A stretch of DNA of 64,000 bases. Origin: a virus. A program made the position numbers and the translations under genes. This document shows, in pieces, positions 1 to 26,458 of this stretch (position 1 is the stretch's first letter; each line of letters begins with the position of its first letter). Under the pieces are notes generated by a model, which was not told the origin of the DNA, did not search any database, and saw nothing but the letters and a program-made list of their open reading frames with translations. Location of the stretch: IMG/VR virus record IMGVR_UViG_3300045988_136739; one strand, 5' to 3'.

Positions 1-68
1 TTTTCATTTGGGCAACTGCTGATGTACTTGAAGAACCCACTGACGCACATTTTGAGGAGGTTTGACTT

Positions 69-383
69 ATGTTGACTATCGCTTCTATCATGCTGGCTCT
101 TTCCGTCCTGACCACTTCTCCTGCCCTTTGCAAGCCCTATATCAGCGTTCCTACCGAGTGCGGTATCGTTGAGGAATACCGTGAGTGCGAGGTCGTAGGG
201 AGCTGCTATGATGGCTCTCGTGGCATGTACGTTGTGACCGTCAAGACCGCAGACGGACAGCTTTGGGATATGCTGGACGGTGAGGACTACTGGCGCAAGG
301 GCGACAGGCTGGTGGCGTGTTTTGACCGCTACGAGGACACCGGCGTTGTGGAACTGAACACAGCTTGCACCTACAAATACTAA
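69..383 (+). CDS. hypothetical small secreted protein (N-terminal hydrophobic signal-like segment)
   Basis: ORF with hydrophobic N-terminus; followed by terminator hairpin; TAA stop. Confidence 0.45.
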   Translation: MLTIASIMLALSVLTTSPALCKPYISVPTECGIVEEYRECEVVGSCYDGSRGMYVVTVKTADGQLWDMLDGEDYWRKGDRLVACFDRYEDTGVVELNTACTYKY

Positions 384-390
384 GAACTGT

Positions 391-416
391 GCCGCTGAAA
401 AGCGGCCTTTTCTTTT
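391..416 (+). terminator. rho-independent terminator
   Basis: gccgctgaaaagcggc hairpin followed by T-run. Confidence 0.6.
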
Positions 417-478
417 ATAGAATCTAAATCATATCGAGATATGACCTTTCAATTTTTTTAGATTTTTGAAATTGGGTA

Positions 479-507
479 TTGACATTTGCCGCAGGGTATG
501 ATATACT
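479..507 (+). promoter_or_regulatory. sigma-A-like promoter TTGACA-17-TATACT
   Basis: consensus -35/-10 with 17-bp spacer upstream of gene at 538. Confidence 0.6.
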
Positions 508-537
508 ATAATCACAGAAAGAAAGGTGGTACACACA

Positions 538-789
538 ATGACTAAACTTGAACTTGCAATCGAACAAAAAATCCTCGCTGACAAGTTGACCCAGCTTACC
601 AAGCAGACCGCACAGTGGAAGGCAATCTTCCTGAATGATGCACGCATCTATGCAGAGAATCCCACATCTAACAACAAGCTGAACATGGATATCTCTGCAA
701 AGCAGTTGCAGTTGAACGAGAGGTGGAAGAACGAGGCGTGGTGCAGATACGTTGCACATCAAACCAAATACGGAGTTCTGCTGAACTAA
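538..789 (+). CDS. hypothetical early protein
   Basis: ATG 538 preceded by AAAGGTGG RBS; own promoter and terminator. Confidence 0.6.
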   Translation: MTKLELAIEQKILADKLTQLTKQTAQWKAIFLNDARIYAENPTSNNKLNMDISAKQLQLNERWKNEAWCRYVAHQTKYGVLLN

Positions 790-800
790 TAGACCAAAAA

Positions 801-830
801 GCCGGGAGAAATCCCGGTTATTCTTGTAGA
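801..830 (+). terminator. terminator hairpin gccgggagaaatcccggtt
   Basis: stem-loop, weak T-run. Confidence 0.4.
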
Positions 831-1027
831 TGGCGGGCTTCATATCAAGATATTATAATTGCTCTAGTTGGGCGTTTTCATATCATGCTATGAAGTGGTG
901 AAATCATATCTTGATATGAATTTCTGTCATTTGAGGAAGAAGACCGCTTCATATCTTGATATGAAATCTAAGAGAATCGTGTAGCAGATTGCACAAAAAT
1001 TTGTTGCGTTTTTCGTCATTTTGACTA

Positions 1028-1061
1028 TTGAAAACGGTGCGCCGTTGTGGTATCATATAAT
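1028..1061 (+). promoter_or_regulatory. sigma-A-like promoter (TTGAAA-17-TATCAT, second TATAAT adjacent)
   Basis: sequence inspection. Confidence 0.5.
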
Positions 1062-1100
1062 CACAGGGACGACCTGAATACATAACACGGGGGCATTGAT

Positions 1101-1283
1101 ATGTTGAACGTACACGGAAAACTTCGTACAGAGGCCGAGTGGTGCAGAATCGAGGACGAGCGCGAGGAGCGCGCAAGACAGGAGGAGCGCGAGGAACAAC
1201 TTGAAGCTGAAGAAGCGGATATGGTAACATATCACGGCTATAAAGTAACAAGCGAGTTTGCCGAGCAGATGATTCACTACTAA
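1101..1283 (+). CDS. hypothetical acidic small protein (E/R-rich)
   Basis: ORF with RBS, promoter upstream, terminator downstream. Confidence 0.55.
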   Translation: MLNVHGKLRTEAEWCRIEDEREERARQEEREEQLEAEEADMVTYHGYKVTSEFAEQMIHY

Positions 1284-1289
1284 GGGAAG

Positions 1290-1317
1290 GCGTGGAGAAA
1301 TCCACGCTTTTCTTTTT
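1290..1317 (+). terminator. rho-independent terminator gcgtggagaaatccacgc + T-run
   Basis: perfect hairpin plus TTTTCTTTTT; same hairpin sequence recurs at 25083. Confidence 0.7.
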
Positions 1318-1447
1318 GTATTTTCTATTTCATATCTTGATATGATTATTTCATTATTTTCTGTTTTGGCTTTTTCATATCTTGATATGAATTTTCTAGT
1401 TTGTAAATTATCGAGCGTTTCATATCTTGATATGACGCACCACAGGC

Positions 1448-1473
1448 GCGGTTAGTTTTGACTAACTAACCGG
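1448..1473. repeat. palindromic hairpin family B: GGTTAGTT-N6-AACTAACC
   Basis: 8-bp perfect inverted repeat; family recurs at 2060, 2743, 4294, 4336, 4371, 6401, 6439. Confidence 0.7.
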
Positions 1474-1613
1474 GTAGAAATATGCACAAAAAATTGCCTG
1501 TATGTTTGTGCAATATGCGAATTGTTATTTTAACGCGGATATGGTATTATATACTTGCAAGGAGGGAATACAAAAAACAACAAAAGAAATCCCAAAAATC
1601 TAAAAATTGGGTA

Positions 1614-1642
1614 TTGACAGAATCCGCTGAATATGCTATAAT
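1614..1642 (+). promoter_or_regulatory. sigma-A-like promoter TTGACA-17-TATAAT
   Basis: perfect consensus. Confidence 0.7.
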
Positions 1643-1687
1643 ATAGACAGTGGATGACACAAATACATAACATTGGAGGAAAACATT

Positions 1688-1999
1688 ATGACTACAAAAT
1701 TCATCGTTACCATCGGCCTGTTTGATAAGGATACCAAAAAGTTGGAGCTTGACCCCGCAAACGCACAGGCACTTCTGAACAATGAAGTGGCACGGCGTTT
1801 CAATGGCGCTACTGTGTATAGCGCTGACGGCGTTTATAAGCACAACAACGGCGAGACGGTGCGCGAACCGTCCTTGCGTGTAGAGCTGTGCTATACCACG
1901 CGGGAGGACGCTGTGGGGCTTGCAACGTGGGCAAAGATGGCATTCAATCAGGAAAGTGTCATGCTGGAAGCCATTGCCGAGGAGTGCGACTTCATTTAA
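1688..1999 (+). CDS. hypothetical early protein
   Basis: ATG 1688 with GGAGG RBS 8 nt upstream. Confidence 0.6.
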   Translation: MTTKFIVTIGLFDKDTKKLELDPANAQALLNNEVARRFNGATVYSADGVYKHNNGETVREPSLRVELCYTTREDAVGLATWAKMAFNQESVMLEAIAEECDFI

Positions 2000-2024
2000 C
2001 TGAAGTTCACACAAATAAAGTGGG

Positions 2025-2050
2025 CGGGGAGAAATCCCCGCTTTACTTTT
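2025..2050 (+). terminator. rho-independent terminator gcggggagaaatccccgc
   Basis: hairpin + T-run. Confidence 0.65.
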
Positions 2051-2111
2051 GTAAAGTGAGTTAGTTAGCGTAAACTAACCTGTGCAACGAAAAATTCATA
2101 GCAAGATATGA

Positions 2112-2225
2112 CGTTGTATACATCGCTGCATCTAATCAAATATTTAACAATCTTCTTGCTGTACAATGATGTATACAACAATGCGTTTAACCAAATATTT
2201 AACAATCTTTTTGTTGTATACAACG
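2112..2225. repeat. three copies of palindrome-containing motif TTGTATACAAC(AATG) (family C) with AAATATTTAACAATCTT direct repeats
   Basis: copies at 2112, 2168, 2211; family recurs at 4269, 4418, 6203, 6276, 6339, 6497. Confidence 0.65.
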
Positions 2226-2385
2226 TAAAACCTAATCAAAAATTTAACAAAGTTTTGGTCTACTTCATATCTTGATATGAAATCTTTTACAATTTACAAA
2301 TTTACAAAATCATATCTTGATATGAAAAAGTAAAAATCAAAAGAAAAAAGAAAATATATTTTTTTAAATTTTTTTGATTTTAGTA

Positions 2386-2413
2386 TTGACATTTGCCTAA
2401 AAGCGAGTATAAT
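2386..2413 (+). promoter_or_regulatory. sigma-A-like promoter TTGACA-16-TATAAT
   Basis: consensus hexamers. Confidence 0.65.
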
Positions 2414-2480
2414 TATAATCAGAAGGCGGGGTTAAAATAAATAAACTACTTGATAGCAGAAATGCAGAAAGGAATCTAAA

Positions 2481-2675
2481 ATGAAAGAAATAAAAAGAAT
2501 TACAGTGCAAAGAGCATTGCGCCGAGCTGGTTTCACGCTTGACCATATAAAAGGTTCACATCACATTTACCGCAGAGGTGAAGGCGAGATGTTAACCGTA
2601 CCGCTTGCAAGGAGCGTAAACGGTAAACTCTGGCAGGATATTTGCAAACAGCATAATATCCCTTGGGACGTGTGA
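2481..2675 (+). CDS. hicA: HicA-family mRNA interferase-like toxin (orphan, no HicB neighbour)
   Basis: 64 aa; GSHHIYR...TVP motif typical of YcfA/HicA fold. Confidence 0.65.
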   Translation: MKEIKRITVQRALRRAGFTLDHIKGSHHIYRRGEGEMLTVPLARSVNGKLWQDICKQHNIPWDV

Positions 2676-2700
2676 AATAATTAACAAAGTCCCTCCTCTA

Positions 2701-2737
2701 ACAACCTGATGTGAAGAATCAGGTTGTTTTCTTTTTA
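2701..2737 (+). terminator. rho-independent terminator
   Basis: aacaacctgatgtgaagaatcaggttgtt hairpin + T-run. Confidence 0.7.
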
Positions 2738-2907
2738 ACAAAGTTAGTTAGTCATAACTAACTCACGCTACGAAAAATTTTCATATCAAGCTATGACTCG
2801 TGACAATTCTTTTTAGATTTTCAAAATCATATCAAGATATGAAAAACCAGAATGTGAACAATTCTTGATTCGTGGGACTTTTTGCGCCTGATGTGGTATA
2901 ATAATTG

Positions 2908-3230
2908 CAGTCCAGAAAGCCCGGACTAGGAGAAACGACCCGGCGGCGTTATAGGCCGCGTAGAGCCGTTATAACGGGCTTGTTTGCCGTGCGGCAAATC
3001 ACTAGACAGCACAGAAAACATTGCACATGGCTTTGCAGGGCTACTAGAGCGGACACAAACAAGATTCCAGCACTTCGGTGAGGCTACTATAAGGATTTAC
3101 AAGATTATTCCAGCACTTTGGCATACTATACAGCCATATACAAAACTTTTGTACAGTTCCACGCTTGCAGAATACAAAACAATAAAAAATAAAGTAAATA
3201 TCCAAAAATCAAAATAGAAAAAATTTTATA
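2908..3230 (+). ncRNA. candidate structured non-coding transcript in early region
   Basis: extended -10 promoter (TGgTATAAT at 2894-2902); no convincing ORF; several hairpins (agccgttataacgggct, ttgccgtgcggcaa); direct repeat caagatt(att)ccagcactt. Confidence 0.25.
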
Positions 3231-3515
3231 AAATAATTTTTATAGAAAATTTTTGATAAATTATATCAAGATATGAATTTGTATTATAGAATTGAGTCAT
3301 ATCAAGCTATGAAAAAATAAATGTGTAGAACGCTAGAATTTCATATCAAGATATAATTTTTTACAGATTTTTTGATTTGAGTAATTCATATCGAGATATG
3401 AAATCTAAAAGAGAATTGCAATCAGATTGTTTCATATCAAGATATGAGCTTGAACAGGGCGAATGCGCTTCACTGCACTAAATTGTGAACAATTTGTGAA
3501 CTTTTCAATTTACTA

Positions 3516-3544
3516 TTGATTTTTGTCTTGCGTTCTGGTAGAAT
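3516..3544 (+). promoter_or_regulatory. sigma-A-like promoter TTGATT-17-TAGAAT with TG extension
   Basis: sequence inspection. Confidence 0.55.
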
Positions 3545-3610
3545 AGAACCATGGAAAGGGCGACAGACCAAAGCCCAAACCAAATACATAATGACAAAGA
3601 GGTACACATT

Positions 3611-3940
3611 ATGAACGTTATCAGAACGACAATCGCACGATTGGATGCAGCCCTTGTGCTTGAGGGACTTACCACTGTGAGAGAGTGGGACGAAGCAAGT
3701 GAGTGTTATGAATTTGATGAGGTAGGCTATCAGTTCAAGGCCGCGACAAAACCGGTTAGTGGCAAGAGCCTCGCGTGGCTTCTCGCGCATGGTGGCGCGG
3801 ATTGGTTGAAGTCGATGGGCTTCACGTTCGCGTATAACAGCGCAACATTCAACGATACACGAAAGTACATCGTGTACGTTGACAGGTACGATGAAATCAC
3901 TTTTCATCGTTACAGCGATTATTTGCTGTGGAAGTGGTAA
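3611..3940 (+). CDS. hypothetical early protein
   Basis: ATG 3611 with AAGAGG RBS; terminator follows. Confidence 0.6.
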   Translation: MNVIRTTIARLDAALVLEGLTTVREWDEASECYEFDEVGYQFKAATKPVSGKSLAWLLAHGGADWLKSMGFTFAYNSATFNDTRKYIVYVDRYDEITFHRYSDYLLWKW

Positions 3941-3950
3941 AAATCTTGTG

Positions 3951-3986
3951 GGCTGGAACTGCAAAAGGTTCCAGCCTTTTTCTTTT
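3951..3986 (+). terminator. rho-independent terminator
   Basis: ggctggaactgcaaaaggttccagcc + T-run. Confidence 0.7.
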
Positions 3987-4293
3987 AGATTTATTCAAAT
4001 TTTTTCTGTTTTAGAATTTCATATCAAGATATGACAGAAGTTTGTATATTTATAGAGATTTTTCTGTTTTTGCAATTATATGAATTTTTTCCGTTTTCAT
4101 ATTTTGATATGAACTAGAGCGTTATAGGTTTGTAAATTCGACTCATATCAAGATATGAAAATATAGTGCATAGATTGAAAAGTATAGATTTTTGTAGATT
4201 TTTCGTTGTAGATGGGGCGAGCCTGAAATGTATTTGCGAGTGCGCGTTGCGCACAAGAAGGGATATTAGCTTGTATACAACAATGGACGCAGC

Positions 4294-4392
4294 GGTTAGT
4301 TTAAGCTGACTAACTTCATCACAGTAAAGAGCTAAAGTTAGTTTGTTATAACTAACTGAACAGCCTCACTGGTTAGTTTAGACTAACTAACT
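4294..4392. repeat. three tandem family-B hairpins (GTTAGTT...AACTAAC)
   Basis: 4294-4314, 4336-4359, 4371-4392; flanked by family-C motifs at 4269 and 4418. Confidence 0.65.
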
Positions 4393-4797
4393 CTAGCAGT
4401 CCAGCAGACCGGCTGCTAATGTATACAACAATGCACTATCAGATGTTTTTAAAATATTTCATCTTTCATATCAAGATATGAACAACTTTCATTTTTCTAG
4501 TTTCTTCCAGCATTTCACCATTTTTTGTGCAACGTGTACATAAAACAGGCTTTGTCAAGCTATATGTTTGTATATACTCACAATGTACAATGGGCTTGCG
4601 ATATGGTAAAATAATAGTGGGAAATCTAGTACATTGAAAACTAAATAAGGTTCACGGCCATTGTCCCGACTTGCACGAGGGACGGAACAAAAAGAAAAGT
4701 GCAAGGCGAAGTTTCCGCATGAAACAAAAAATCCGATTGTTCCACATGGAACAAAACATTTTGATACGGCTTGTAAAGCCGAGAAGGGTACATATTA

Positions 4798-5720
4798 TGA
4801 GAATTAACGGAATTAGCGTTGACGTTGAAAAACCCCGCAAAGGCACGAGATGTGCATTTTGTGGTGAATACATTGGTGAGCATTCGTTCATCAAGACCAG
4901 CACAAACCACCAAACAAGCGCGTTCGTACATACTGAATGTTTGAGAATGCGTTCATACCACGAACAATTCAGAACGCCGGACGGTAACACGTTGCCGCTA
5001 TTCGATAACAGCCGCAAAGCTACAACTTCCGAACGTATAATTTATACGCCGGAAGTTGAATTTGCAAATGAGTATGACCTTTGGTCGATGGAAAAGAAAG
5101 CCGCTTTTGTGGCGCAATTCAGAATGTACCTTGAGCACGACTGCACCGTTGGTGCTGAAGGCCATGTGTACAGTGCAATCAATTTTCACGGCTTGTTCCA
5201 ATGGTATGAGAACCTTGCAAAATGGGTGGATATGTCTGATAGTTCGTGCGGCCATCACATGAATTTTTCATGGTATGGCATGAAGGCCGAGGACGTTCGT
5301 AAAATTCAGCGGCATTCCGGCGAACTGTTCCAGCCCGTTGAGAAGTGGATGAGAGAACACCCCGAACAGGTCAAAAAGATTTTTGGCCGTAACTTTTCAC
5401 ACTGGGCAAGGGATGATGAGGAGTATGTACATGGTTCATGGTTGAACCTTGAGAACGACTGGAACGACCGTGAAGCGCGTATTGAATACCGTTTGCCACA
5501 CTTTGTTAATTCTAAACAGATTACATGGTGCGCGTTCATGTTGAAAGACTGGACAAAGGAACTTCGTTCCTATTGTTCCGGCGAACAGGACGAACGCAAA
5601 ACCGCAATGAACATTCTGAACCACATTCAGAAAGCCGCAAATGGGAAAGCCCTTTATCAGCGGCCCGAACGTAACGGAAACGCCAAAAAGGCAAAATCCG
5701 AAGATTTGCCTTTTGATTGA
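4798..5720 (+). CDS. hypothetical protein; weak resemblance to glutamine-synthetase-like amidoligases; contains CxxC/HxxC zinc-ribbon-like N-terminus
   Basis: motifs TPEVEFANE and RIEYRLP reminiscent of Amidoligase_2/GS-like fold; assignment weak. Confidence 0.3.
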
Positions 5721-5815
5721 TTGAACGAATAGCGGATACTATTGAAAGACTTTCAACAAGTCCGCGTTTTCACTTTATTTATTTAATCTAAAATAAGAAT
5801 GGGGTTTAATTTATT

Positions 5816-6100
5816 ATGAAAAAGTTTTTTGTTGTTCTTTCCGTCCTGTTTGTCCTGTTCTCCTTTACCGCTTGCAACGTGGGTGCAGGGGAGTTTGAGC
5901 CGACTAACCAGCTGGCAAAGAATGGTAAAATAGTGTCCGTATGCGGCGAACAGGTGAGCGTAAACGTTGCCGGTGACGTGTTCACGTTTGAGGGCACTAA
6001 CTATCACGTCGGCGAGGACGTGAAGGTTTACTTCGATGTGAACGGTGAACCTACTAACCCGTGGGTTTGGTGGGTTATTGACTGCAAGCCGTTGCACTAA
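5816..6100 (+). CDS. putative lipoprotein (signal peptide + FTAC lipobox)
   Basis: MKKFFVVLSVLFVLFSFTAC N-terminus. Confidence 0.6.
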   Translation: MKKFFVVLSVLFVLFSFTACNVGAGEFEPTNQLAKNGKIVSVCGEQVSVNVAGDVFTFEGTNYHVGEDVKVYFDVNGEPTNPWVWWVIDCKPLH

Positions 6101-6130
6101 TCAGTAACAAGCGCACAACAAGCCAACTTT

Positions 6131-6196
6131 ACCACACTAAAGTGATTGACAGGGTTTTAACAATTCCTTCAGTGCTTTAGTGTGGTAAATTTTTTA
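6131..6196 (+). terminator. long-stem hairpin accacactaaag...ctttagtgtggt followed by A/T run
   Basis: 12-bp perfect stem, 33-nt loop, T-run. Confidence 0.4.
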
Positions 6197-6202
6197 TATA
6201 TT

Positions 6203-6515
6203 TTGTTGTGTACAACGCTGTATGCAATGATATATTTATATTTGAATATCATATTGAATTTATTATAATATTTTTTATTGTATACATCGTGAGCCTGTAT
6301 CGTTGCACTATCACGTTGGATACAACAGTGTTTTGATACGTTGTATACTTCATTGCATCTAAGCAAGTATGTAACAATCGCTTCAGTACGGTAAAGCGAT
6401 GAAGTTAGTTAGTCGTAACTAACCGTCAGGGGTTGAACGCGGTTAGTGGTGGCTAACCCATTAACCCACCATGGGGGTGGGTTTACAAACCCAGAGCTGT
6501 TGTATACAACGTTGG
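6203..6515. repeat. AT-rich spacer with family-C (TGTATACAAC) copies and two family-B hairpins
   Basis: motifs at 6203, 6276, 6316, 6339, 6401, 6439, 6497. Confidence 0.6.
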
Positions 6516-6593
6516 ACACGTAGCCCTTATGTTTTCAGAGAAACCTACTTTCTTATCCGTATAAAAATTAACGATATAAAAATAGTGACCTTA

Positions 6594-6944
6594 TCAGTCA
6601 CTATCATCAGGACATTCATATCTAACAACTACGACACGTCTATTATATTCAATTGCATTGATAACAATACGATTTTTACCACTACAATCATTGTATAAAT
6701 ACACCCAACTATCCTTATCAAATTCTGGACTTGGAATCCTTTCCCAATTATTTAATTCGTTACCAAATGATTTAGGATGTGAACCACCAGCAACAACTGA
6801 ATCTGTGACGTGACTTACATATCCATGAACAAACTTGCATCTGTCAGGATTGATACCTTTAATCCTGATTACATCTTTTAGATATTCTTTATAACTATCA
6901 ATAAGTTCACGTTCTTCATTCTTCTTTTTAGGATTAACAAACAT
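6594..6944 (-). CDS. hypothetical protein, paralog family with W-x-R-I-P-S-P-x-F-D-K-D-S-W-V-Y motif
   Basis: shares motif with 6957..7271 and 8009..8416. Confidence 0.55.
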   Translation of the reverse strand: MFVNPKKKNEERELIDSYKEYLKDVIRIKGINPDRCKFVHGYVSHVTDSVVAGGSHPKSFGNELNNWERIPSPEFDKDSWVYLYNDCSGKNRIVINAIEYNRRVVVVRYECPDDSD

Positions 6945-6956
6945 TAAATCCCTCCG

Positions 6957-7271
6957 TCATTTATGGGTATACGAAACAACAATCAATTTATCTGGATGCG
7001 TGCTAGAGACTGCGTTAAGTATACGCCATCTATCATAATAACGACCACAATAATAGTACACCACGCTATCCTTGTCGAAGTCAGGGCTAGGAATCCTTAC
7101 CCACTCCTTATTAACACTTCCTTGCCATATCGCATAATTGTTCCCACGCAACGGCTGTCCTTCAATGTTATCCGCGCGAGTTTCATCAAATTTGTAATCG
7201 GATGTATCGCCACAAGAAAGCGCGATTAAATGTTCAACATACTCTCTGTATTTTCCAATTAGTTTATTCAT
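6957..7271 (-). CDS. hypothetical protein, same paralog family
   Basis: WVRIPSPDFDKDSVVYYY motif. Confidence 0.55.
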   Translation of the reverse strand: MNKLIGKYREYVEHLIALSCGDTSDYKFDETRADNIEGQPLRGNNYAIWQGSVNKEWVRIPSPDFDKDSVVYYYCGRYYDRWRILNAVSSTHPDKLIVVSYTHK

Positions 7272-7581
7272 TTCTATAATCCTTTACATAATATCTATGA
7301 ACGTAAAGTTCTTTATCTCCAACCTTGTGGAACATCAAACATATATATCTTTTATCAAAATTAGTCCATAAATATAACATAACATCATGAACCGAGCAAG
7401 GGATTCGCACAGTGGATGATTGCCGAAGTCCATCGACAATTAACTTGCCGTTATCCTGTTCAATTCTGGAATAACGATAGCAACTTTTAGATGTTTCACG
7501 CCAGTATCGTTTATCGAATCCTGCATTATTGTAGTCGTCCCAAAAAGACTCAACTACATCTCTACGTTTATAACCGAGCAT
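7264..7581 (-). CDS. hypothetical protein (distant member, RIPCS / FDKRY)
   Basis: ORF in minus operon. Confidence 0.45.
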   Translation of the reverse strand: MLGYKRRDVVESFWDDYNNAGFDKRYWRETSKSCYRYSRIEQDNGKLIVDGLRQSSTVRIPCSVHDVMLYLWTNFDKRYICLMFHKVGDKELYVHRYYVKDYRNE

Positions 7582-7593
7582 TTAGAAAACTCC

Positions 7594-8058
7594 TTATACC
7601 ACTGGACTAATGACAGGACGAATATTTTCAAGAATAAAGCGCACAAGCCTGACACGTGTTTCTTTGTCCGGCACTGTTAATGTACAATTATAATCTGGTA
7701 CATAGTCTGGGAACTCAATAAGAACAGACCGCATAAGCTCATATCGTGATGTATGACCATACATATTTAGATTTGTCCTATATACGATTTCATATTTATT
7801 GTTCCAGAAACCATGTACTTTCCTACAATAGACCATTCTGGATGCACATGGGATTCTAAAGAAATTCTCCTCATTAGCAAAACTCTTCATGTCGTATGCA
7901 TTATATCGCAAGAATATGGGAGCTTCATCAATACCCAAATCAATATCTTTAAGAACAGACCTTACTTCATCCTCAAAAATTTTTGAAAACCCACTTCTGG
8001 AAATTCTATCAAGCTCTTTGCAGTCCATAGTTTCTCCTATCCGTGGTAAAGTCACCAC
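7594..8058 (-). CDS. hypothetical protein
   Basis: ORF in minus operon. Confidence 0.45.
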   Translation of the reverse strand: MVTLPRIGETMDCKELDRISRSGFSKIFEDEVRSVLKDIDLGIDEAPIFLRYNAYDMKSFANEENFFRIPCASRMVYCRKVHGFWNNKYEIVYRTNLNMYGHTSRYELMRSVLIEFPDYVPDYNCTLTVPDKETRVRLVRFILENIRPVISPVV

Positions 8059-8416
8059 ATTTTCTGCATCTCTGTATTTCTATCTCAAGAAATTCATCTG
8101 GATAGTCAATACAGAACACAGTTAAAAAATACTTGTCCTCATATATACCTCTTGCATAGAACACCCATGCGTTCTTATCAAATGGTTGTGACGGTAAACG
8201 ATGCCAAGCCCTTATAGTGTCATCAGAAGATACATCGAATAATGGAAAATATGGGCTACCTTGCTCTAGCTCTATATAATCTATACAATTTTCTAGGTGC
8301 ACAGATTTAGGTACATGAACTTGATATTTAGATATATCTACACCAAGTAGGCGCATAATATAGAACAAGTATCTACAATAACAGCTTAACTTAAAGTGTC
8401 TTACAGAATTTGTCAT
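8009..8416 (-). CDS. hypothetical protein, paralog family (WHRLPSQPFDKNAWVFY)
   Basis: shared motif. Confidence 0.5.
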   Translation of the reverse strand: MTNSVRHFKLSCYCRYLFYIMRLLGVDISKYQVHVPKSVHLENCIDYIELEQGSPYFPLFDVSSDDTIRAWHRLPSQPFDKNAWVFYARGIYEDKYFLTVFCIDYPDEFLEIEIQRCRKCGDFTTDRRNYGLQRA

Positions 8417-8814
8417 ACTTCCTCTTCAGTAATGTTTTGAATATTTGCCTTATTAAACGGTATGCCCATTTCTCGTTCAAATGTAAATTCTACATAATAT
8501 TCAGTATCACCATCAAAACACTTCATCGTAACATAGTAATACTGATAATCGCCAACATAGATAAATAAATCACATTCTCTACAAGGTACTCTATATGAAT
8601 AGAGTCGCGCATAAGTACCACCATCGACACAAGCCCCACTAATATTACCATTATAAAACTTTACATTTTCAGAGGTACATAATGCACGTAAACCAGTAAA
8701 AAGAAAGTTAGAGTCGGGTAGGTATTCATTTGCAAGTGCAAACGCACGTCTCGCAAAAACGTTGAGATGTACACTATTACCACCCCTCGTTTTTCCTAAA
8801 AGCACAGCAGACAT
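8413..8814 (-). CDS. hypothetical protein
   Basis: ORF. Confidence 0.45.
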   Translation of the reverse strand: MSAVLLGKTRGGNSVHLNVFARRAFALANEYLPDSNFLFTGLRALCTSENVKFYNGNISGACVDGGTYARLYSYRVPCRECDLFIYVGDYQYYYVTMKCFDGDTEYYVEFTFEREMGIPFNKANIQNITEEEV

Positions 8815-8816
8815 TA

Positions 8817-9119
8817 TTATCTCCTTACGTATAGCTCACTATGAAGCAGTTCGGTTCCTTCTTCAAAGAAATAAACACGAAAACAATCGCAATTTTCTTT
8901 TGCGTCCGTGAACACCCTTGTATTTAGATACAATGATGGAATCCTGTAGACTTTGTATGTCGAAACATAAACCTGAAGCTGTCCATTATTATCGCAAATA
9001 AAAGAATGATGACCGGTATAATGGTCTTTGCTTCTCCAATATTTCTCGACAAGACCGAGTTCAGGAGCGGTATTCTTCCAAAAATATCTTGTAATGGCTT
9101 TCCACTTTTCATCTCTCAT
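8817..9119 (-). CDS. hypothetical protein (YRIPS motif)
   Basis: ORF. Confidence 0.45.
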   Translation of the reverse strand: MRDEKWKAITRYFWKNTAPELGLVEKYWRSKDHYTGHHSFICDNNGQLQVYVSTYKVYRIPSLYLNTRVFTDAKENCDCFRVYFFEEGTELLHSELYVRR

Positions 9120-9694
9120 CGTAGACTCTGCACTCCTTCTGACTCGCGAGTATTGTATGAAACATCTGTTGTTGTTACTCTAACGTAAGGTGACTCACCA
9201 TACACATAATCATAATCACGTCTAAATGAATTACCATAATAGCCATAAGCGTCAATAGTCGTATCAAGCGTATTAGACATGGGTAATGTATATGTAGATT
9301 CACTATCATTGACTGTAACGCTATCCATATTACTATCAACGGTGAATGTATAAAGCTCATTGCCACTTGGATGCGTATACGACAGCTGTGATTTAAGTTT
9401 AATAACGCGATAAAACGGATGTCTTTCATTTCCATTTGCATCAAGTGTTGTCATATATGCAAGACGATAAATTTTATGATGGTTTCTAGGAAGATACTGT
9501 TTGATATATGCCTTGCCGATTGTACAAGGTACGCGACAGTAACCTCTTGATTCAAATTCGTGACATGAGAGGATTTCGGTAGCGCAAACAACAAATTCCT
9601 CGTCAGTGCCAATTTCTGCGGCATCTAAGAATTTATTCGCTTCGTCCTTCACTACCTGAGATAATCTAAACGTATCAACTCCTGTATGATTCAT
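9116..9694 (-). CDS. hypothetical protein
   Basis: ORF. Confidence 0.45.
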   Translation of the reverse strand: MNHTGVDTFRLSQVVKDEANKFLDAAEIGTDEEFVVCATEILSCHEFESRGYCRVPCTIGKAYIKQYLPRNHHKIYRLAYMTTLDANGNERHPFYRVIKLKSQLSYTHPSGNELYTFTVDSNMDSVTVNDSESTYTLPMSNTLDTTIDAYGYYGNSFRRDYDYVYGESPYVRVTTTDVSYNTRESEGVQSLR

Positions 9695-9703
9695 TATTGC
9701 ACC

Positions 9704-10045
9704 TCACCTTTTATCAATTTCCATATAGATGTAATCAGAACGCTCAATGTCTTTATCGTAAAAATCTAAAGCCAAACACCTAATATTGCCACCAACAGAA
9801 ACAGGTTGGTTTACATATACACGGAAACCGTTATAATCAGGGACTCTATAAGTAGTGTTGTAAGTATCGCCATTATACCCAAGCCGACCGTTTTGATTTT
9901 CCATCTCTGTGAAATCAAAAGCATCCTTTACTCCGCCAGTAATCTTAGTCGGGTCAAAATCAATATGATTTGCCGTAATTACACCTAAGATATTATTACG
10001 AACGTCTTGCGGGATATCGTCAAAACTCATAAAACCTTTAGACAT
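9704..10045 (-). CDS. hypothetical protein
   Basis: ORF. Confidence 0.45.
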   Translation of the reverse strand: MSKGFMSFDDIPQDVRNNILGVITANHIDFDPTKITGGVKDAFDFTEMENQNGRLGYNGDTYNTTYRVPDYNGFRVYVNQPVSVGGNIRCLALDFYDKDIERSDYIYMEIDKR

Positions 10046-10054
10046 ACATACTCC

Positions 10055-10489
10055 TTAAATTTCACCAAGCAGAACTCTCGGCCTACCTCTGCTCCAATCT
10101 CCAGACAGAAAACGTACTTCATTGTACTCACCAGTATAGTTTTCGTGGAATATAAAAGATATATCTCCACGATGTCTTTCATTGACAAATGTAAGCGCAA
10201 TATCTTTGTCCGTCTTATAAGGCAGTCTCATATACTCTTCGTTGTTGTACGGATGATAACATTCTGCGGCAATCGCAATGTCTTCTTCGTCTGCATCCAC
10301 CTGACGAAAAGCAATAACAGTCGCCACGTTATCGTTTGCGTTTACATTGTCGGTCTGTGTCCAAGGACGACACCTAAGTAACCCAAGCTCATTAAGTATA
10401 CTCATATATTTAACAGCCGTCTGATACATATTGTTATTCTTGAGATACTCAATATCAGACATATCTGCCAATCTTGCGTAAAGTTTCAT
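10055..10489 (-). CDS. hypothetical protein
   Basis: ORF. Confidence 0.45.
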   Translation of the reverse strand: MKLYARLADMSDIEYLKNNNMYQTAVKYMSILNELGLLRCRPWTQTDNVNANDNVATVIAFRQVDADEEDIAIAAECYHPYNNEEYMRLPYKTDKDIALTFVNERHRGDISFIFHENYTGEYNEVRFLSGDWSRGRPRVLLGEI

Positions 10490-10905
10490 TCAAATTTCTC
10501 CGTATCAAGCGTAATGCCATATCTAATAGCATTGACAACACTTGTAAATAAATCTAAAGAGAAGTAAACGTCTTTCTCTTTATCAACAAATACAATTTCG
10601 ATGTAGTTCCTATACCGAGATAAATAACACAGCATATCCCCATTGCTAGGGAGTCTACCATTGCAATGCGACAGCGCTCTGCAATAATTGTTATAGCCGT
10701 ACACTTCTGGATAAGAGATTCGCTCATCAAAAGTTAGTGCCATAAAGTAACGGTCACAACTGTTAATATCCTCCAAGTTATTCATGACCATAAAATTGAT
10801 AATATCGAGTGCATTTTTGATATACGGCTTTGCTTCAGATTTTTGTAGGACATCTAAAGTTTCGCTGTAAATTAACTCAACAACCATCGTATTCCCTCGT
10901 GTCAA
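10486..10905 (-). CDS. hypothetical protein
   Basis: ORF. Confidence 0.45.
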   Translation of the reverse strand: MTRGNTMVVELIYSETLDVLQKSEAKPYIKNALDIINFMVMNNLEDINSCDRYFMALTFDERISYPEVYGYNNYCRALSHCNGRLPSNGDMLCYLSRYRNYIEIVFVDKEKDVYFSLDLFTSVVNAIRYGITLDTEKFE

Positions 10906-11293
10906 TTTCTACCAAGTCAGTCTCTAATGCAGAAAACTGAGCGCCGAAGTTAAAAGAGTTAAAAATGTTGCTGGTCTTATTGATAAATACGAATTGCATA
11001 GGAATCTTGTTCGGCGCAAAAATGCCGTAACAATCCCAAGCCGGTCTTGTAGGAAGTTTACGGCCTATTGCCATACTATAGGAATAAAAGTAGACACCAT
11101 TGTTCATGTAGCAGTCTGGCAAATCAATATGATAATCTAAGTTAATATACATTGTGATATGATTGTCAGGAAACTCAGCAAGGCCGTTGTCCTCGATGAA
11201 GTTGAACCACTTGCATACCTCCAACAGGTTATTTTTTACCAAGTCAATCTTTAACTTAGATTTGCGGTCTGCCTTTTTGATAGTAAGTATCAT
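10877..11293 (-). CDS. hypothetical protein
   Basis: ORF (start possibly downstream of the 10905 overlap). Confidence 0.4.
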   Translation of the reverse strand: MILTIKKADRKSKLKIDLVKNNLLEVCKWFNFIEDNGLAEFPDNHITMYINLDYHIDLPDCYMNNGVYFYSYSMAIGRKLPTRPAWDCYGIFAPNKIPMQFVFINKTSNIFNSFNFGAQFSALETDLVEIDTREYDGC

Positions 11294-11574
11294 AAGTCCT
11301 TGACAATCCTTTCAGATTTTGCTAAACTAGGATTTGCGTGAACTGTAAACGTATAAACAGGTTCAACATATTCATCTGCGCCAAATCCCCGTATTCTACC
11401 GTTTGTCATACACACAGTCTGCATAACGTCATAATCCTCAGATTCGATTGGATATAAGTCGGTCAGCATGTAGATATCGCCTCTTGCCTGAAAAGAAAAC
11501 CCATGCTTCTGGTTGCCAAGTCTTACCATATCCACAGGTCTAGTCACAGTATTTTCCATATCTTGTACCTCCAT
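11290..11574 (-). CDS. hypothetical protein, first gene of leftward operon
   Basis: ORF directly downstream of minus-strand promoter. Confidence 0.45.
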   Translation of the reverse strand: MEVQDMENTVTRPVDMVRLGNQKHGFSFQARGDIYMLTDLYPIESEDYDVMQTVCMTNGRIRGFGADEYVEPVYTFTVHANPSLAKSERIVKDL

Positions 11575-19119: not shown

Positions 19120-19314
19120 ATGAAAGGAATTATTATGAGAATGGAATTTATCAGTATTGGTGATATTGTTCGTGACAATTCCTGTGCATATTCTTGCATC
19201 GACAAGGTTGTTGGTGTTAGATATAATAAGTATGGAACTTTTTACAAGATGTGTTCTAGTGGTTTGTATGTAGCAAGTGACAAGGTAGAGAAGGTGGTTT
19301 ACCCCGATGACTAA
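19120..19314 (+). CDS. hypothetical small protein
   Basis: ORF. Confidence 0.4.
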   Translation: MKGIIMRMEFISIGDIVRDNSCAYSCIDKVVGVRYNKYGTFYKMCSSGLYVASDKVEKVVYPDD

Positions 19315-19708
19315 GATGGTTATTGTAGTTAGGCGAGACTTACACATGAGGAAAGGTAAGGCAATCGCACAGGCTTGTCACGGTGCTGTAAATATTATCC
19401 TAAAAGCCCTTGACAGGGATGGCTTGCCGTGGTATACTGTTGGTGATGGACGGATAGTCGTTGATGGTGATTCGGCGCTGTCTGAATGGTTCTCTGATTC
19501 GTATACTAAGGTTTGTCTTTATGTTGACAGTGAAGAGGAACTTCTGAATCTAAAGAAGAAGGCAGATGAAGCTGACATCATGACGAGTTTAGTTCGTGAT
19601 AACGGTACTACAGAGTTTCACGGAGTTAAAACCTACACTTGTCTTGTATTTGAACCGCTGGATTCACGAGTAATTGACCCTATTACTGGTAATCTCCCTC
19701 TGTATTGA
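19307..19708 (+). CDS. peptidyl-tRNA hydrolase, PTH2 family
   Basis: KMVIVVRRDLHMRKGKAIAQACHGAV matches PTH2 signature. Confidence 0.7.
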   Translation: MTKMVIVVRRDLHMRKGKAIAQACHGAVNIILKALDRDGLPWYTVGDGRIVVDGDSALSEWFSDSYTKVCLYVDSEEELLNLKKKADEADIMTSLVRDNGTTEFHGVKTYTCLVFEPLDSRVIDPITGNLPLY

Positions 19709-19720
19709 GAGGTGAATCTA

Positions 19721-19966
19721 ATGGAGTCTTATAAACTTGCACAGATGGTGTAGGTAATAAGAGAGGATGAGGGCATTTGCCCGTTGACGTTCTCTGAAAT
19801 TATGCAACATCATGGTGGATGTGTATTTGTTATCGGTGAGAAGTGTGGCTACGGTACTGTAGACGTAACTAAGATGGCTGTGCTTTTAGATGGCAAATAT
19901 GTTGATATCCATGGTTGTGGTACTGAATTTTACGCTTACGATATTAGGCCGTATAGCGTGAAATGA
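19721..19966 (+). CDS. hypothetical Cys-rich protein with in-frame TAG at 19751-19753
   Basis: strong GAGAGGTGA RBS 7 nt before ATG 19721; frame continuous through TAG into ORF 19784..19966 whose own ATG lacks an RBS. Confidence 0.45.
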
Positions 19967-20300
19967 ATTTTAAAAAAGTAAAAGTAAAAACAAAAATTGT
20001 AAAGTAAAAACAAAATGTAATACGTCGCCCTTCATATTATGAAGAATTATAACGATATACATTTTTGAAATTTTGTGGTTAGATTTGACTTGTGCATATC
20101 CCATGTCTAAACCGCAAATATGCAAATAATTCATTGGTTGTTCTAATCACATATTGGTAGTGTAATTATCCTTAAAATTGTATCATACAAAAAATAGCTT
20201 GCACTGTGTCATTTATCAATGCTTGTTAGTAAAGGACAATTTGCTATAATAAGAGATAGATAGCAATAAATAATAGATTAACACGAAAGGATAAATTGTT

Positions 20301-20371
20301 ATGATTGTCAATGGTAAGAGAGCTTTGTGCCTTACCGCGTCAGCGGTAAACAAAGGGCGCATCACAATGTA
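20301..20371 (+). other. upstream mini-ORF (23 codons) duplicating the RBS and first 9 codons of the RNA ligase gene, with two hairpins
   Basis: gaaaggataaattgttatgattgtcaatggtaag versus gaaaggataggttaaatatatgattattaacggtaaa. Confidence 0.4.
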
Positions 20372-20413
20372 AGAATAGCTTTATTTGATAAGTAGAAAGG
20401 ATAGGTTAAATAT

Positions 20414-21535: not shown

Positions 21536-21550
21536 TCTAAAATAAGGAGA

Positions 21551-21597
21551 AACGCCGATACTGTCTTTAATGTGAAGAAAAGTCGGCGTTATTTATT
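21551..21597 (+). terminator. terminator hairpin aacgccga...tcggcgtt + T-rich tail
   Basis: 8-bp stem. Confidence 0.5.
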
Positions 21598-21599
21598 AA

Positions 21600-21827
21600 A
21601 TGGCATATTATACCTACGAGCAGTTGGTAAATAAGATAAATAATGGCGAAGTAATTTATTTCGTTAATGCTGAATGCGATATTACAGAGTTTTCTTTTGA
21701 TGGTCATTATAAAATGACAATATCAAATCTAATGAAAGTTATTTTTAACAAAGAATTAACCGAAGAAGAATTTAATGAACGCTTCACATACTATGTGAGA
21801 CATTTCAAGATTGGCGGTAAAAAATGA
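21600..21827 (+). CDS. hypothetical small protein
   Basis: ORF. Confidence 0.4.
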   Translation: MAYYTYEQLVNKINNGEVIYFVNAECDITEFSFDGHYKMTISNLMKVIFNKELTEEEFNERFTYYVRHFKIGGKK

Positions 21828-23027: not shown

Positions 23028-23042
23028 CAAAGCTAGAAAGTT
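23014..23042 (+). promoter_or_regulatory. promoter TTGACA-17-TATAAT
   Basis: consensus. Confidence 0.6.
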
Positions 23043-23075
23043 TTGATATAATAACTACAGAAACGGAGGGATAGG

Positions 23076-24089: not shown

Positions 24090-24105
24090 TTATAAGGAGA
24101 AAAAT

Positions 24106-25068: not shown

Positions 25069-25082
25069 AATCTAACGATTTA

Positions 25083-25110
25083 GCGTGGAGAAATCCACGC
25101 TTTTTATTTT
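25083..25110 (+). terminator. rho-independent terminator gcgtggagaaatccacgc + T-run
   Basis: identical hairpin to 1290. Confidence 0.7.
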
Positions 25111-25120
25111 GCAAAACCCC

Positions 25121-26446: not shown

Positions 26447-26458
26447 GGAGGTATAAAT

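Follow-up and report, generated by a model that had tools for sequence, protein, structure and literature searches.

The early gene region of this large gut phage carries a dense array of short palindromes (Family A) at the boundaries between its gene units, which we propose to be a putative array of operators or boundary elements through which a master repressor or insulator would act, its sites doubling as PeSL-like shuffling points (see below); we hold this reading with about as much confidence as doubt. The array accompanies some 25–30 tiny early gene units, in which small genes on the + strand follow promoters of the type TTGACA-17-(TG)TATAAT and end in terminators formed by a GC-rich hairpin and a T-tract. 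The promoters and terminators bear out the original prediction that this is an early module resembling a host-takeover region, in which every tiny gene has a σA promoter and a terminator to itself. The three palindrome families noted there (A, B and C) are confirmed, in an array larger than stated, and the interpretation given to them is partly supported.

Family A has the form TTCATATC-WW-GATATGAA, i.e., 16 bp made of 7-bp arms and a 2-bp centre, within a conserved core of 18 bp. A scan of the window (the whole 64-kb stretch of DNA analysed here) with the query TCATATCWWGATATGA, allowing at most two mismatches and with shuffled sequence as the null, returned 22 sites, one to five per intergenic gap, close to the about 20 copies counted in the first reading; 0.22 sites are expected from the shuffles, none of which attained 22. 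All 22 sites fall within 429–4481 and none in the rest of the 64 kb, a distribution that is not random. A further 16 sites were found in the 4.2 kb of the same genome upstream of the window, so that the array extends past the window edge and does not start at position 424, as had been proposed. Two complete relatives of ~149 kb have 70–79 sites each, spread across 22–25 kb, and in both the exact 18-mer is restricted to that one region. Arrays recur in at least eight independent assemblies and are therefore not an assembly artefact. Across IMG/VR and a metagenome collection, a pattern of two sites was found in this phage clade only, except for the plasmid-like locus L143. The switch of the central dinucleotide from TT to AA reported near position 2500 is a local run only; in full arrays the orientation varies cluster by cluster, and it flips between orthologous sites.

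The Family A clusters number about 25 per genome, and each fills the untranscribed stretch that separates an early unit's intrinsic terminator from the consensus σA promoter of the unit that follows (Table 1). In about 17 of 20 units the first site lies at +19 to +22 nt from the terminator stem; this distance is equal in all lineages despite differing intervening sequence, and each inserted Family B site lengthens it by a fixed increment. Neighbouring sites show a dominant spacing of 44–46 bp, the spacers themselves being unconserved (identity of 0.307 vs 0.296 in shuffles). The last site ends ~47 nt before the -35 hexamer, with mostly 48–60 bp from centre to centre, and the sites are clear of both the -35 and the -10 hexamer. 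The fixed distances could in part be a legacy of intergenic modules that were duplicated and share a common descent. Not every promoter is accompanied by Family A sites: they are lacking at seven strong promoters within the array and at a minus-strand consensus promoter at 11618. This counts against the operator reading, as does the position of the sites, which are oddly placed for a classical repressor; as they lie clear of the hexamers, repression would need spreading, looping or trapping of the polymerase.

Table 1. Early units and palindromic sites in the first part of the window (positions are those of the window)
Feature	Position	Strand	Remark
Early cassette gene, 104 aa, ORFan	69..383	+	
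Intrinsic terminator, gene 69-383	391..415	+	
Family A, single site	429..444		22 nt past terminator stem ending at 407; upstream of promoter 479-507
σA-type promoter TTGACA-17-TATACT, extended -10 TG	479..507	+	
Early cassette gene, 83 aa, ORFan	538..789	+	
Intrinsic terminator, gene 538-789	800..829	+	
Family A x4 (840, 878, 904, 949)	840..964		First 21 nt past stem ending at 819
σA-type promoter TTGAAA-17-TATCAT, TG	1028..1056	+	
Early cassette gene, 60 aa, acidic, ORFan	1101..1283	+	
Intrinsic terminator, gene 1101-1283	1282..1325	+	
Family A x3 (1330, 1375, 1420)	1330..1435		Exactly 45 bp apart; first 20 nt past terminator stem
Family B, GGTTAGTT-N6-AACTAACC	1450..1471		
Consensus σA promoter TTGACA-17-TATAAT, TG	1614..1642	+	
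Early cassette gene, 103 aa, DUF3574	1688..1999	+	Weak SAM-lyase-like match
Intrinsic terminator, gene 1688-1999	2022..2053	+	
Family B	2060..2079		Directly after terminator 2022-2043; moves first A site to +54
Family A, degenerate (TCATAGCAAGATATGA)	2096..2111		
Three direct-repeat units, 45-55 bp	2113..2263	+	C at 2114, 2169, 2214, plus TAAYCAAATATTTAACAATCTT
Family A x2	2265..2325		45 bp apart; upstream of promoter 2386-2413
Consensus σA promoter TTGACA-16-TATAAT	2386..2413	+	
Early cassette gene, 64 aa, HicA-type toxin	2481..2675	+	
Intrinsic terminator, HicA-like gene	2700..2738	+	
Family B	2743..2762		Directly after terminator 2700-2728
Family A x2	2781..2842		46 bp apart
Family A x5 (3261, 3297, 3341, 3386, 3432)	3261..3447		Upstream of promoter 3516-3544
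σA-type promoter TTGATT-17-TAGAAT, TG	3516..3544	+	
Early cassette gene, 109 aa, ORFan	3611..3940	+	Variable cassette
Intrinsic terminator, gene 3611-3940	3950..3987	+	Gene and terminator swapped as a unit in relatives
Family A x3 (4019, 4097, 4143)	4019..4158		
B/C cluster	4270..4429		C 4271, B 4295, B 4337, B 4372, C 4419; left breakpoint of cassette replacement at 4429
Family A, last site of the array	4466..4481		
Last early unit, 307-aa and 94-aa genes	4797..6100	+	Flanked by both B/C clusters
Untranscribed gap between convergent terminators	6195..6581		C-like 6206, 6278, 6316, 6341, 6500; B 6404; B variant 6441; direct-repeat copy 6342-6390; AT-rich 6225-6275

The information content of the Family A sites is restricted to the 18-bp core. 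Compared with a relative of ~75% identity, the arms are 93.7% identical, vs 75.5% for other intergenic DNA (p = 6e-13). Variants of the arms were single-arm changes in 237 cases and compensated in three, with no covariation that would support pairing in RNA, and the predicted RNA hairpin is weak (−3.8 kcal/mol). This is evidence for a selected protein-binding site, which would be recognized by its sequence, the structure not being what counts. The operator-like sites envisaged in the original prediction are likewise suggested by the core-only conservation, the uncompensated arm variants, the fixed geometry and the confinement to a single region. With 7-bp half-sites whose centres are 9 bp apart, the sites are most likely bound by a dimer, and the protein is probably encoded by the phage. 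Conservation, arm variants and fixed geometry argue against chance, an assembly artefact and RNA signals as the origin of the sites. For the last of these, in which the palindromes would act in RNA as processing or stability hairpins of early transcripts, we see hardly any probability: Family B hairpins are moderately stable (−5.7 to −10.8 kcal/mol) and two of them lie directly 3' of terminators, within reach of read-through, but the A and C sites sit after terminators and before promoters and are marginal in stability (−2.2 kcal/mol for C), the arms of A and B show no compensatory changes, and an Rfam search returned no matching family. From the layout of promoters and terminators the A sites are outside transcripts, and no transcript over them is expected; the earlier idea of RNA processing signals is not upheld for Family A.

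Family B (GTTAGTT-N6-AACTAAC) has eight sites in 1451–6423, vs 0.42 expected, and a short variant at 6441–6458, in keeping with the about nine copies first counted; their location, described as usually just after terminators, holds for only two of the eight. Family C (TTGTATACAAC, at most one mismatch) has nine sites in 2114–6510, again as first counted, plus one with two mismatches at 6341, and only four sites in the remaining 57.5 kb. Its tandem arrangement with direct repeats was also found: in 2115–2263, three units of 45–55 bp each couple C to TAAYCAAATATTTAACAATCTT; the unit is present a fourth time at 6342–6390. In the comparison used for Family A, B stems are 92.7% and C sites 93.9% identical (other intergenic DNA, 75.5%), and B arm variants are 67 single-arm vs none compensated. 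B and C are separate sequence-specific palindromic sites, presumably for one or more other factors. In all relatives neither family extends beyond the distal 5 kb of the early array, and both also occupy the gap at 6195–6581, where they cannot be promoter operators since the gap is untranscribed and lies between convergent terminators; a role as boundary element, origin or packaging site is possible.

Mainly for B and C, the palindromes could instead be cis signals for DNA entry, replication or packaging (a T5-like injection stop, origin iterons or terminase sites). Their distal location would fit, as would the untranscribed gap with its AT-rich stretch and iteron-like repeats of 45–55 bp, and the injection-stop region of T5, in which conserved non-coding repeats and palindromes end the pre-early DNA that is injected first, is comparable (bioRxiv 10.1101/866236). 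We rate this explanation as very improbable. DnaA boxes, including those of the T5 type, are absent from positions 1–7000, the AT-rich part of the gap is unconserved in one relative, the genome ends were not located, and Family A occurs at every unit boundary across 25 kb, a spread that is not required of an origin, a pac site or a stop signal.

The sole clear DNA-binding gene in the array lies just upstream of the window, and its product, of 184 aa, has two HTH motifs; the gene is absent from a relative that retains all its Family A sites and is thus dispensable, which counts against it as the binder. About 40 nearby proteins were scanned with Pfam and PHROG without detection of a regulator, and a structure model of the one candidate with the appearance of a winged helix was of low confidence; this lack of a binder weighs against the operator reading. 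The array may instead organize the genome (ParB/KorB-like or nucleoid-type loading for partition or compaction of a phage-plasmid) or act as a decoy for a host protein, which we consider distinctly unlikely. F sopC is formed by 43-bp tandem units, and both F sopC and the RK2 KorB OB sites are palindromes of 13–16 bp, the OB sites being dispersed at variable distances upstream of promoters and giving co-ordinated repression. The palindromic Family A sites, with their 7-bp arms, 2-bp centre and tandem register of ~45 bp, resemble sopC; a near-identical palindrome lies upstream of a ParA operon in an unrelated plasmid-like contig; the toxin genes of the array, of the HicA and MazF types, are typical of plasmid maintenance; and Clostridioides difficile phage pCD1602_4, which we take to be a phage-plasmid, is among the nearest cultured relatives. 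However, a search of about 100 kb from this clade turned up no gene resembling ParA, and the scanned proteins included no ParB-like match or KorB-type gene. Sites are far more numerous than in those systems and are tied to terminator-promoter boundaries, in about 25 separate clusters over 25 kb rather than a single centromere, so that centromere or origin iterons, both suggested at first, are not sustained for Family A. The 18-mer is not enriched in bacterial genomes (80 scattered single matches), with no sign of a host regulon, and no prophage or plasmid copy was found across 185,579 genomes.

Identical Family A cores of 16–18 bp are crossover points for the gain, loss and replacement of early cassettes. 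The junction of a 794-bp cassette deletion falls exactly inside one site, and 62 of 179 breakpoints (counts of non-independent events) lie inside a site or no more than 5 bp away, a three-fold enrichment over the 11% expected. Close relatives differ by whole-cassette replacements; the 307-aa gene, for instance, is replaced in relatives, with no alignment across 4429-5731, whereas the 94-aa gene of this unit is conserved. The window also codes for an SSB and for an annealing protein of the Sak4-like kind. Cassette exchange is thus a second role, or a consequence, of the sites. A precedent is found in the PeSLs of T4-like phages, modules of a terminator and a strong early promoter that flank small, variable, non-essential genes (PMC2839356, PMC4122927). 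There too, regulatory modules are repeated around small genes, and differences between close relatives map to the modules, which are therefore points of modular shuffling. The PeSL repeat, however, is the promoter and stem-loop itself, whereas here a separate palindrome array with its own strict spacing lies between terminator and promoter, in an unrelated phage lineage with a Gram-positive-like host. These observations would also suit repeats that are pure recombination scaffolds, kept for cassette shuffling with neither a dedicated binder nor a role in transcription. We regard this as unlikely, because homology-driven exchange needs no palindrome, no strict 45-bp register with unconserved spacers and no terminator offset of 20–22 nt; longer identical tracts would be better substrates, which leaves conservation limited to 18 bp unexplained, and the promoters and terminators are less uniform than the palindrome.

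For an operator or boundary array, a precedent in layout is the SPBRE of SPβ. This intergenic element recurs in about 10 promoter regions; it was predicted in silico and then found by ChAP-seq to be the operator of MrpR (YopR), the single master repressor of the lytic genes, toxin genes included (PMC10516654). In both cases one large Firmicute phage has copies of a short conserved element in many of its intergenic promoter regions, and the DnaE-type polymerase places our phage in a group with large phages of Firmicutes, SPβ-like ones among them. SPBRE comprises ~10 sites of 15 bp, as opposed to 70–79 sites of 18 bp here, in clusters of one to five with a 45-bp register and a fixed terminator offset, and no MrpR-like protein was found in this phage. 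The stoperators of cluster A mycobacteriophages, bound by L5 gp71-type repressors and proposed to block both initiation and elongation of transcription, are likewise present by the dozen, as repressor sites in the short gaps between genes throughout a phage genome, and a roadblock role would match the first Family A site just past each terminator; a stoperator, however, is an asymmetric 13-mer to which a monomer binds, its orientation locked to the direction of transcription (PMC9283540), whereas the A sites are near-palindromic, mixed in orientation, clustered and limited to one 25-kb region. SPO1's host-takeover module and the pre-early region of T5 have in common with this array that their small early genes are equipped with ribosome-binding sites and strong σA/σ70 promoters, and that several of the products are toxic to the host (PMC6873191; bioRxiv 10.1101/866236); no operator-like palindrome array at every unit boundary is described there, and the present early region, of roughly 25 kb, is about twice as long.

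In the mechanism that we propose for the operator or boundary array, the bound protein would coat each unit boundary and contact the front edge of RNA polymerase positioned on the U-tract of the terminator, which may strengthen termination and insulate neighbouring cassettes; toxins are encoded by several of these cassettes. Should insulation be required as early as the first minute of infection, an early protein of the phage would arrive too late, which speaks against this part of the reading. The same protein would shut down some 25–30 very strong early promoters together, and this joint shut-off may constitute the early-to-middle switch of the lytic cycle or, on the model of MrpR acting via SPBRE in SPβ, silencing in a lysogenic or plasmid state.

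The scan of the window with TCATATCWWGATATGA, at up to two mismatches, found 22 Family A sites, every one of them inside a single tract of about 4 kb (see the table), whereas dinucleotide shuffles gave an expectation of 0.22 sites and never reached 22; in a de novo count of all palindromes with 6-bp arms, Families A and B were the sole recurrent palindromes in the 64 kb. The Family A palindromes of the original prediction are thus real, and in the window they are restricted to this tract. Upstream of the window the array continues: an ENA contig identical to the window and reaching 4.2 kb further carries 16 further A sites, the first-recovered stretches of two ~149-kb IMG/VR genomes (94–97% identical to the window) hold 70 sites per genome, and a related contig retrieved with its upstream flank (127389) has 79 sites across 24.8 kb. 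In that contig the array begins just past three amidoligase-family genes, is broken by a tRNA block and ends at the B and C clusters. In a relative's locus that spans the array start (L138), four Amidoligase_2-family paralogs, one of which scores slightly under the Pfam cut-off, flank the first A cluster, and the interrupting tRNA block consists of 5–6 genes. The exact 18-mer is confined to the array on the two ~149-kb contigs. A two-site pattern matched only this phage clade in IMG/VR and, in a metagenome collection, seven more loci of the clade, some just 74–78% identical, together with one unrelated plasmid-like locus (L143; see below); it had no match in 185,579 bacterial genomes. A single-site scan of IMG/VR was uninformative, with chance matches among the matches listed, and in bacterial genomes the 18-mer gave 80 scattered single matches in unrelated taxa, with no regulon and no prophage. 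As the array is present in at least eight independent assemblies, it is neither a product of chance nor an assembly artefact.

The window genes that lie between the repeats are small and on the + strand, and each unit has, as originally described, its own σA promoter (TTGACA-17-(TG)TATAAT) and an intrinsic terminator formed by a GC-rich hairpin with a T-tract. About 30 units were delineated in a relative, in the order terminator, A cluster (1–5 sites), consensus promoter and one to four small genes. The products of the early units are for the most part ORFans; the recognisable families are a HicA-type toxin, a MazF/PemK-type toxin and a 184-amino acid protein with two helix-turn-helix (HTH) motifs, and a DUF3574 protein shows a weak SAM-lyase-like match. 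Small, clustered early genes with strong σA promoters in many short operons, toxins of the HicA and MazF types included, bear out the SPO1-like early module that had been proposed, although the SPO1 and T5 early modules have only this gene architecture in common with the array region (PMC6873191; bioRxiv 10.1101/866236). Directly 3′ of the HicA-type toxin gene, for which an antitoxin is not obvious, we noted a promoter-like site (extended −10) and, after it, some 300 bp that lack a clean ORF; a relative has an intact 88-amino acid ORF at this position and the window copy is split by a 2-bp deletion, so that the unit is either a frameshifted small gene or a non-coding RNA.

Features of the window and of loci retrieved for comparison
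Feature	Sequence	Position	Strand	Remarks
Family A sites	window	429–4481		22 sites
Family B sites	window	1451–6423		8 sites
Shortened Family B variant	window	6441–6458
Family C sites	window	2114–6510		9 sites
C direct-repeat units	window	2115–2263		three units
Fourth C direct-repeat unit	window	6342–6390
B/C cluster	window	6195–6581		between convergent terminators
HicA-type toxin gene	window	2481–2675
MazF/PemK-type toxin gene	relative
DUF3574 protein gene	early unit
184-amino acid HTH protein gene	L001	2810–3364		early unit, 1.4 kb upstream of window start
Unit without clean ORF	window	2865–3220
Small paralogous genes	window	6594–11574	minus	about 13 genes
Perfect consensus promoter of the paralog block	window	11618–11590	minus	no A sites
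tRNA/RNA-repair kit	window	19307–38362
PurZ-like gene and kinase-HD-domain fusion	window	25085–27364
D12-class N6-adenine DNA methyltransferase gene	window	39932–40621
D12-class N6-adenine DNA methyltransferase gene	window	53503–54018
Amidoligase_2-family paralogs	L138	1826–6693		upstream of and inside array start
Perfect palindromes	L143 (SKDY01000159.1)	1590–1850		plasmid-like contig
GATAAAA-N6-TTTTATC repeats	L229 (FADO)	1–50000		18 copies

The position of the A sites within the units is fixed on both sides. In about 17 of 20 units of the relative, the first site starts 19–22 nt past the terminator stem; the distances in the window are 22, 21 and 20 nt, and neither the upstream extension nor the 75%-identical relative departs from this distance, though the intervening sequence differs. 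With one inserted B site the distance becomes 52–54 nt, and with two, 98–101 nt. Towards the promoter, the last A site usually has its centre 48–60 bp upstream of that of the −35 hexamer. From these distances, the sites occupy the untranscribed DNA between units. Neighbouring sites are most commonly 44–46 bp apart, and since their spacers are no more similar to one another than shuffled sequence (identity of 0.307 versus 0.296), it is the spacing itself that is maintained. Other spacings fall at 22–27 and 32–39 bp, ranges too broad for a helical period outside the 44–46-bp class.

The information content of Family A is limited to an 18-bp core. Measured against one ~75%-identical relative, orthologous A arms are 93.7% identical, B stems 92.7% and C sites 93.9%, as compared with 75.5% for other intergenic DNA and 72.5% for coding DNA (A arms versus other intergenic DNA, Fisher p = 6e-13). 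Family A is a real feature and is under selection. Among the arm variants of Family A, 237 affect a single arm and 3 are compensated (3/242); for Family B, 67 affect a single arm and 0 are compensated (0/67). The predicted RNA hairpins are marginal (−3.8 kcal/mol for A and −2.2 kcal/mol for C) and Rfam returned no family matches. The uncompensated arm variants, together with the marginal A and C hairpins, argue that it is the sequence that is read and not a hairpin. The same observations, and the location of A between terminator and promoter, speak against the earlier suggestion that the palindromes are RNA-processing signals. Family A is a polar pseudo-palindrome: once the sites are oriented by the central AA, degeneracy is 2–2.5 times higher in the 3′ arm than in the 5′ arm. 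Sites of either orientation are present in the co-directional gene array, and orthologous sites can differ in the direction of their centre; thus, what had been described as a switch of the central dinucleotide from TT to AA is a local run of orientations and not a change of polarity. Judged from these sequence properties, Family A is very probably a DNA site recognised by a protein.

The closest functional precedent is the SPBRE-MrpR system: SPBRE is a repeated intergenic element, predicted in silico and later shown to be the operator of MrpR, the master repressor of lytic genes (PMC10516654). The likeness lies in the described layout, here with 70–79 A sites in about 25 intergenic gaps and consensus promoters downstream. 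MrpR is a phage-encoded repressor with a tyrosine-recombinase-like fold, and SPBRE serves in the maintenance of lysogeny; no MrpR-like protein was found by Pfam, PHROG or PDB sequence match among about 45 ORFs, although such folds may escape sequence searches, and no integrase was seen in the parts of the genome examined. Nor did Pfam or PHROG reveal a regulator among about 40 nearby ORFs or proteins; four candidate binders had no matches among PDB sequences, and the AlphaFold single-sequence model of a 159-amino acid candidate (pLDDT 57) is unreliable. The 184-amino acid HTH protein, with an N-terminal HTH, a basic linker, a second HTH and a C-terminal coiled-coil-like tail, resembles in size and layout the 183-amino acid two-domain L5-type repressors of the stoperator system (PMC9283540). 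However, its cassette, bounded by A sites, is precisely missing in one relative which keeps all of its A sites, so that this protein cannot be required. No bacterial genome showed enrichment for the 18-mer, and a host regulon is thus not indicated.

The window also carries a gene for a divergent adenylosuccinate synthetase (PHROG "PurZ-type"; Pfam Adenylsucc_synt) directly 5′ of a kinase-HD-domain fusion, a pair that recalls the PurZ/DatZ genes of phages that swap adenine for 2-aminoadenine. This pairing is a lead only, but it hints at 2-aminoadenine in the genome, in which case host proteins would be less likely readers of A/T-rich palindromes. Two D12-class N6-adenine DNA methyltransferase genes are found further downstream.

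Two other kinds of site array invite comparison. The mycobacteriophage stoperators are asymmetric 13-mers with an orientation locked to the direction of transcription (PMC9283540); they share with Family A the idea of intergenic sites that stop polymerase, which for Family A would be by inference, whereas Family A is an 18-bp near-palindrome found in mixed orientation in a co-directional array. With centromere arrays of the sopC/parS type, Family A shares the site format and the spacing, and a partition function had been among the original suggestions; yet the A sites form about 25 dispersed clusters over 22–25 kb, one per transcription-unit boundary, instead of one locus, no ParA was found by tblastn in about 100 kb of the clade and Pfam scans of the proteins examined gave no ParB-like match, all of which weighs against it. 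On the unrelated plasmid-like contig L143, perfect TCATATCATGATATGA palindromes, duplicated with part of the gene start, immediately precede an operon for a ParA-type ATPase, the second gene of which is small and RHH-like; they look like a partition operator with a resemblance to the A core.

Close relatives differ through the replacement of whole units. The unit encoding the HTH protein, absent from one relative, measures 794 bp, and the junction of the deletion is a single A site, with the left flank of the upstream copy and the right flank of the downstream copy. Across five genomes, 62 of 179 alignment breakpoints coincided with an A site or lay no more than 5 bp away, where 11% would be expected; the breakpoints are not independent and the p-value therefore overstates the case, but the enrichment is still three-fold. 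A Sak4-like annealing protein and an SSB, both encoded in the window, could support exchange at short homologies. The closest evolutionary precedent is provided by the PeSLs of T4-like phages, which are sites of the same cassette-shuffling behaviour (PMC2839356; PMC4122927). In both cases breakpoints map to repeats that flank small variable genes; the PeSL repeat, however, consists of the terminator stem-loop and the early σ70 promoter themselves, whereas here the terminator and promoter sequences vary and the conserved repeat is the 18-bp palindrome between them. Exchange between neighbouring PeSL copies also forms encapsidated mini-circles. The combination of about 75 copies of a single palindrome, a fixed terminator and promoter register, confinement to one 25-kb early island and three palindrome families appears to be new.

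The two other families also stood up to scrutiny. Family B (GTTAGTT-N6-AACTAAC) has eight sites in the window against 0.42 expected, in addition to a shortened variant, and Family C (TTGTATACAAC, at most one mismatch) has nine sites in its tract and just four in the other 57.5 kb. Three direct-repeat units of 45–55 bp each join a C site to TAAYCAAATATTTAACAATCTT, and a fourth copy lies at the distal end. In every relative B and C are confined to the last 5 kb of the array, where B is able to occupy the position directly after a terminator and the C units keep their 45–55-bp register; both families are conserved and sequence-specific. The B/C cluster at the distal end, between convergent terminators and with an AT-rich stretch alongside, has no promoter to control, so that B and C cannot be promoter operators there; a role as a boundary, origin or packaging element is possible. 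The gap may match the T5 injection stop in part, namely as conserved non-coding DNA with repeats and palindromes that closes the region expressed first; the T5 stop has paired DnaA boxes inside conserved inverted repeats within the long terminal repeat (bioRxiv 10.1101/866236). The likeness fails on those boxes: TTWTNCACA was not found in positions 1–7000 and occurs four times in the whole window, against 10.5 expected. Contig 122016 stops at the edge of the array; the sequence at this end has no second copy elsewhere, and the end is most likely a repeat-induced assembly break.

The phage of the window is a large one, with 13 tRNA genes, a DnaE-type polymerase, a primase-helicase, a DNA ligase and an RNA ligase. 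The polymerase shares 59% identity with its counterpart in a human-gut phage fragment (MT835481) and is 40–42% identical to proteins annotated as DNA polymerase III alpha in large Bacillus and Clostridioides phages, FADO included; none of the nearest cultured relatives by polymerase is SPO1-like (Herelleviridae), and FADO, which carries YorF/YorG/YorJ homologues, is thus SPβ-like. Positions 1–7000 of the window had no blastn match in GenBank phages, no recurrent palindromes were found in MT835481 (a partial sequence that stops short of the early region), and the first 50 kb of Bacillus phage FADO contained no A-like arrays. That stretch of FADO has a different, transcribed, intercistronic repeat family, always placed after a stop codon and ahead of the following ribosome-binding site within long operons.

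Convergent with the early array lies a block of small paralogous genes (100–190 amino acids; about 19% mean identity), driven from a consensus promoter, and the genes share an R-[IVL]-P...FDKD motif; the products have no Pfam or PHROG match and, once aligned, the family proved too divergent to serve as a probe for distant relatives. Further downstream, the tRNA genes and the RNA ligase are accompanied by an RlaP-type nucleotidyltransferase, a Thg1-like tRNA-His guanylyltransferase, a PTH2 peptidyl-tRNA hydrolase, YqeY and a 499-amino acid PHROG "RNA-binding protein", a kit that suggests a counter-measure to tRNA-targeting host defences.

At intrinsic terminators RNA is released about 7–9 nt past the stem, and the footprint of RNA polymerase extends roughly 15–20 bp in front of the active site. 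Given this release point and footprint, a protein bound to the first A site would be in contact with the leading edge of a polymerase halted on the U-tract, and the bound site would have the geometry of a roadblock, reinforcing termination. Most likely, the A array is the operator and boundary array of a putative regulator and doubles as a cassette-exchange site; for the regulatory mechanism itself we put the chances at about even. The conservation of the 18-bp core alone, the uncompensated arm variants and the fixed geometry favour the operator-like reading put forward originally. A more far-reaching view, which we consider improbable, is that Family A is a new kind of phage boundary element. 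Its sequence-specific protein would form polymers with a 45-bp register at about 25 terminator-promoter junctions, turning intrinsic terminators into roadblock-assisted, near-absolute stops and covering the 25-kb island of toxic host-takeover genes with a silencing, chromatin-like coat; the A sites would make this island an exchangeable cassette store, in function an integron-like gene bank without an integrase. In a more radical variant, the 70–79 high-affinity sites would be decoys that titrate a host protein.

How dozens of very strong early promoters are shut off in large virulent or plasmid-like phages of gut Firmicutes, and how toxic early genes are insulated from one another, is largely unknown. 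If the array indeed has the proposed operator and boundary function, one 18-bp operator that recurs 70–79 times, always in the same register with terminator and promoter, would offer a simple, testable handle on this switch; the site could serve as bait for the regulator, would define a ready-made regulon and might be a compact insulator part for Gram-positive synthetic biology. By marking the exchange points of early "host-takeover" cassettes, the A sites would also connect gene regulation with the fast replacement of counter-defence genes that uncultured gut phages undergo.
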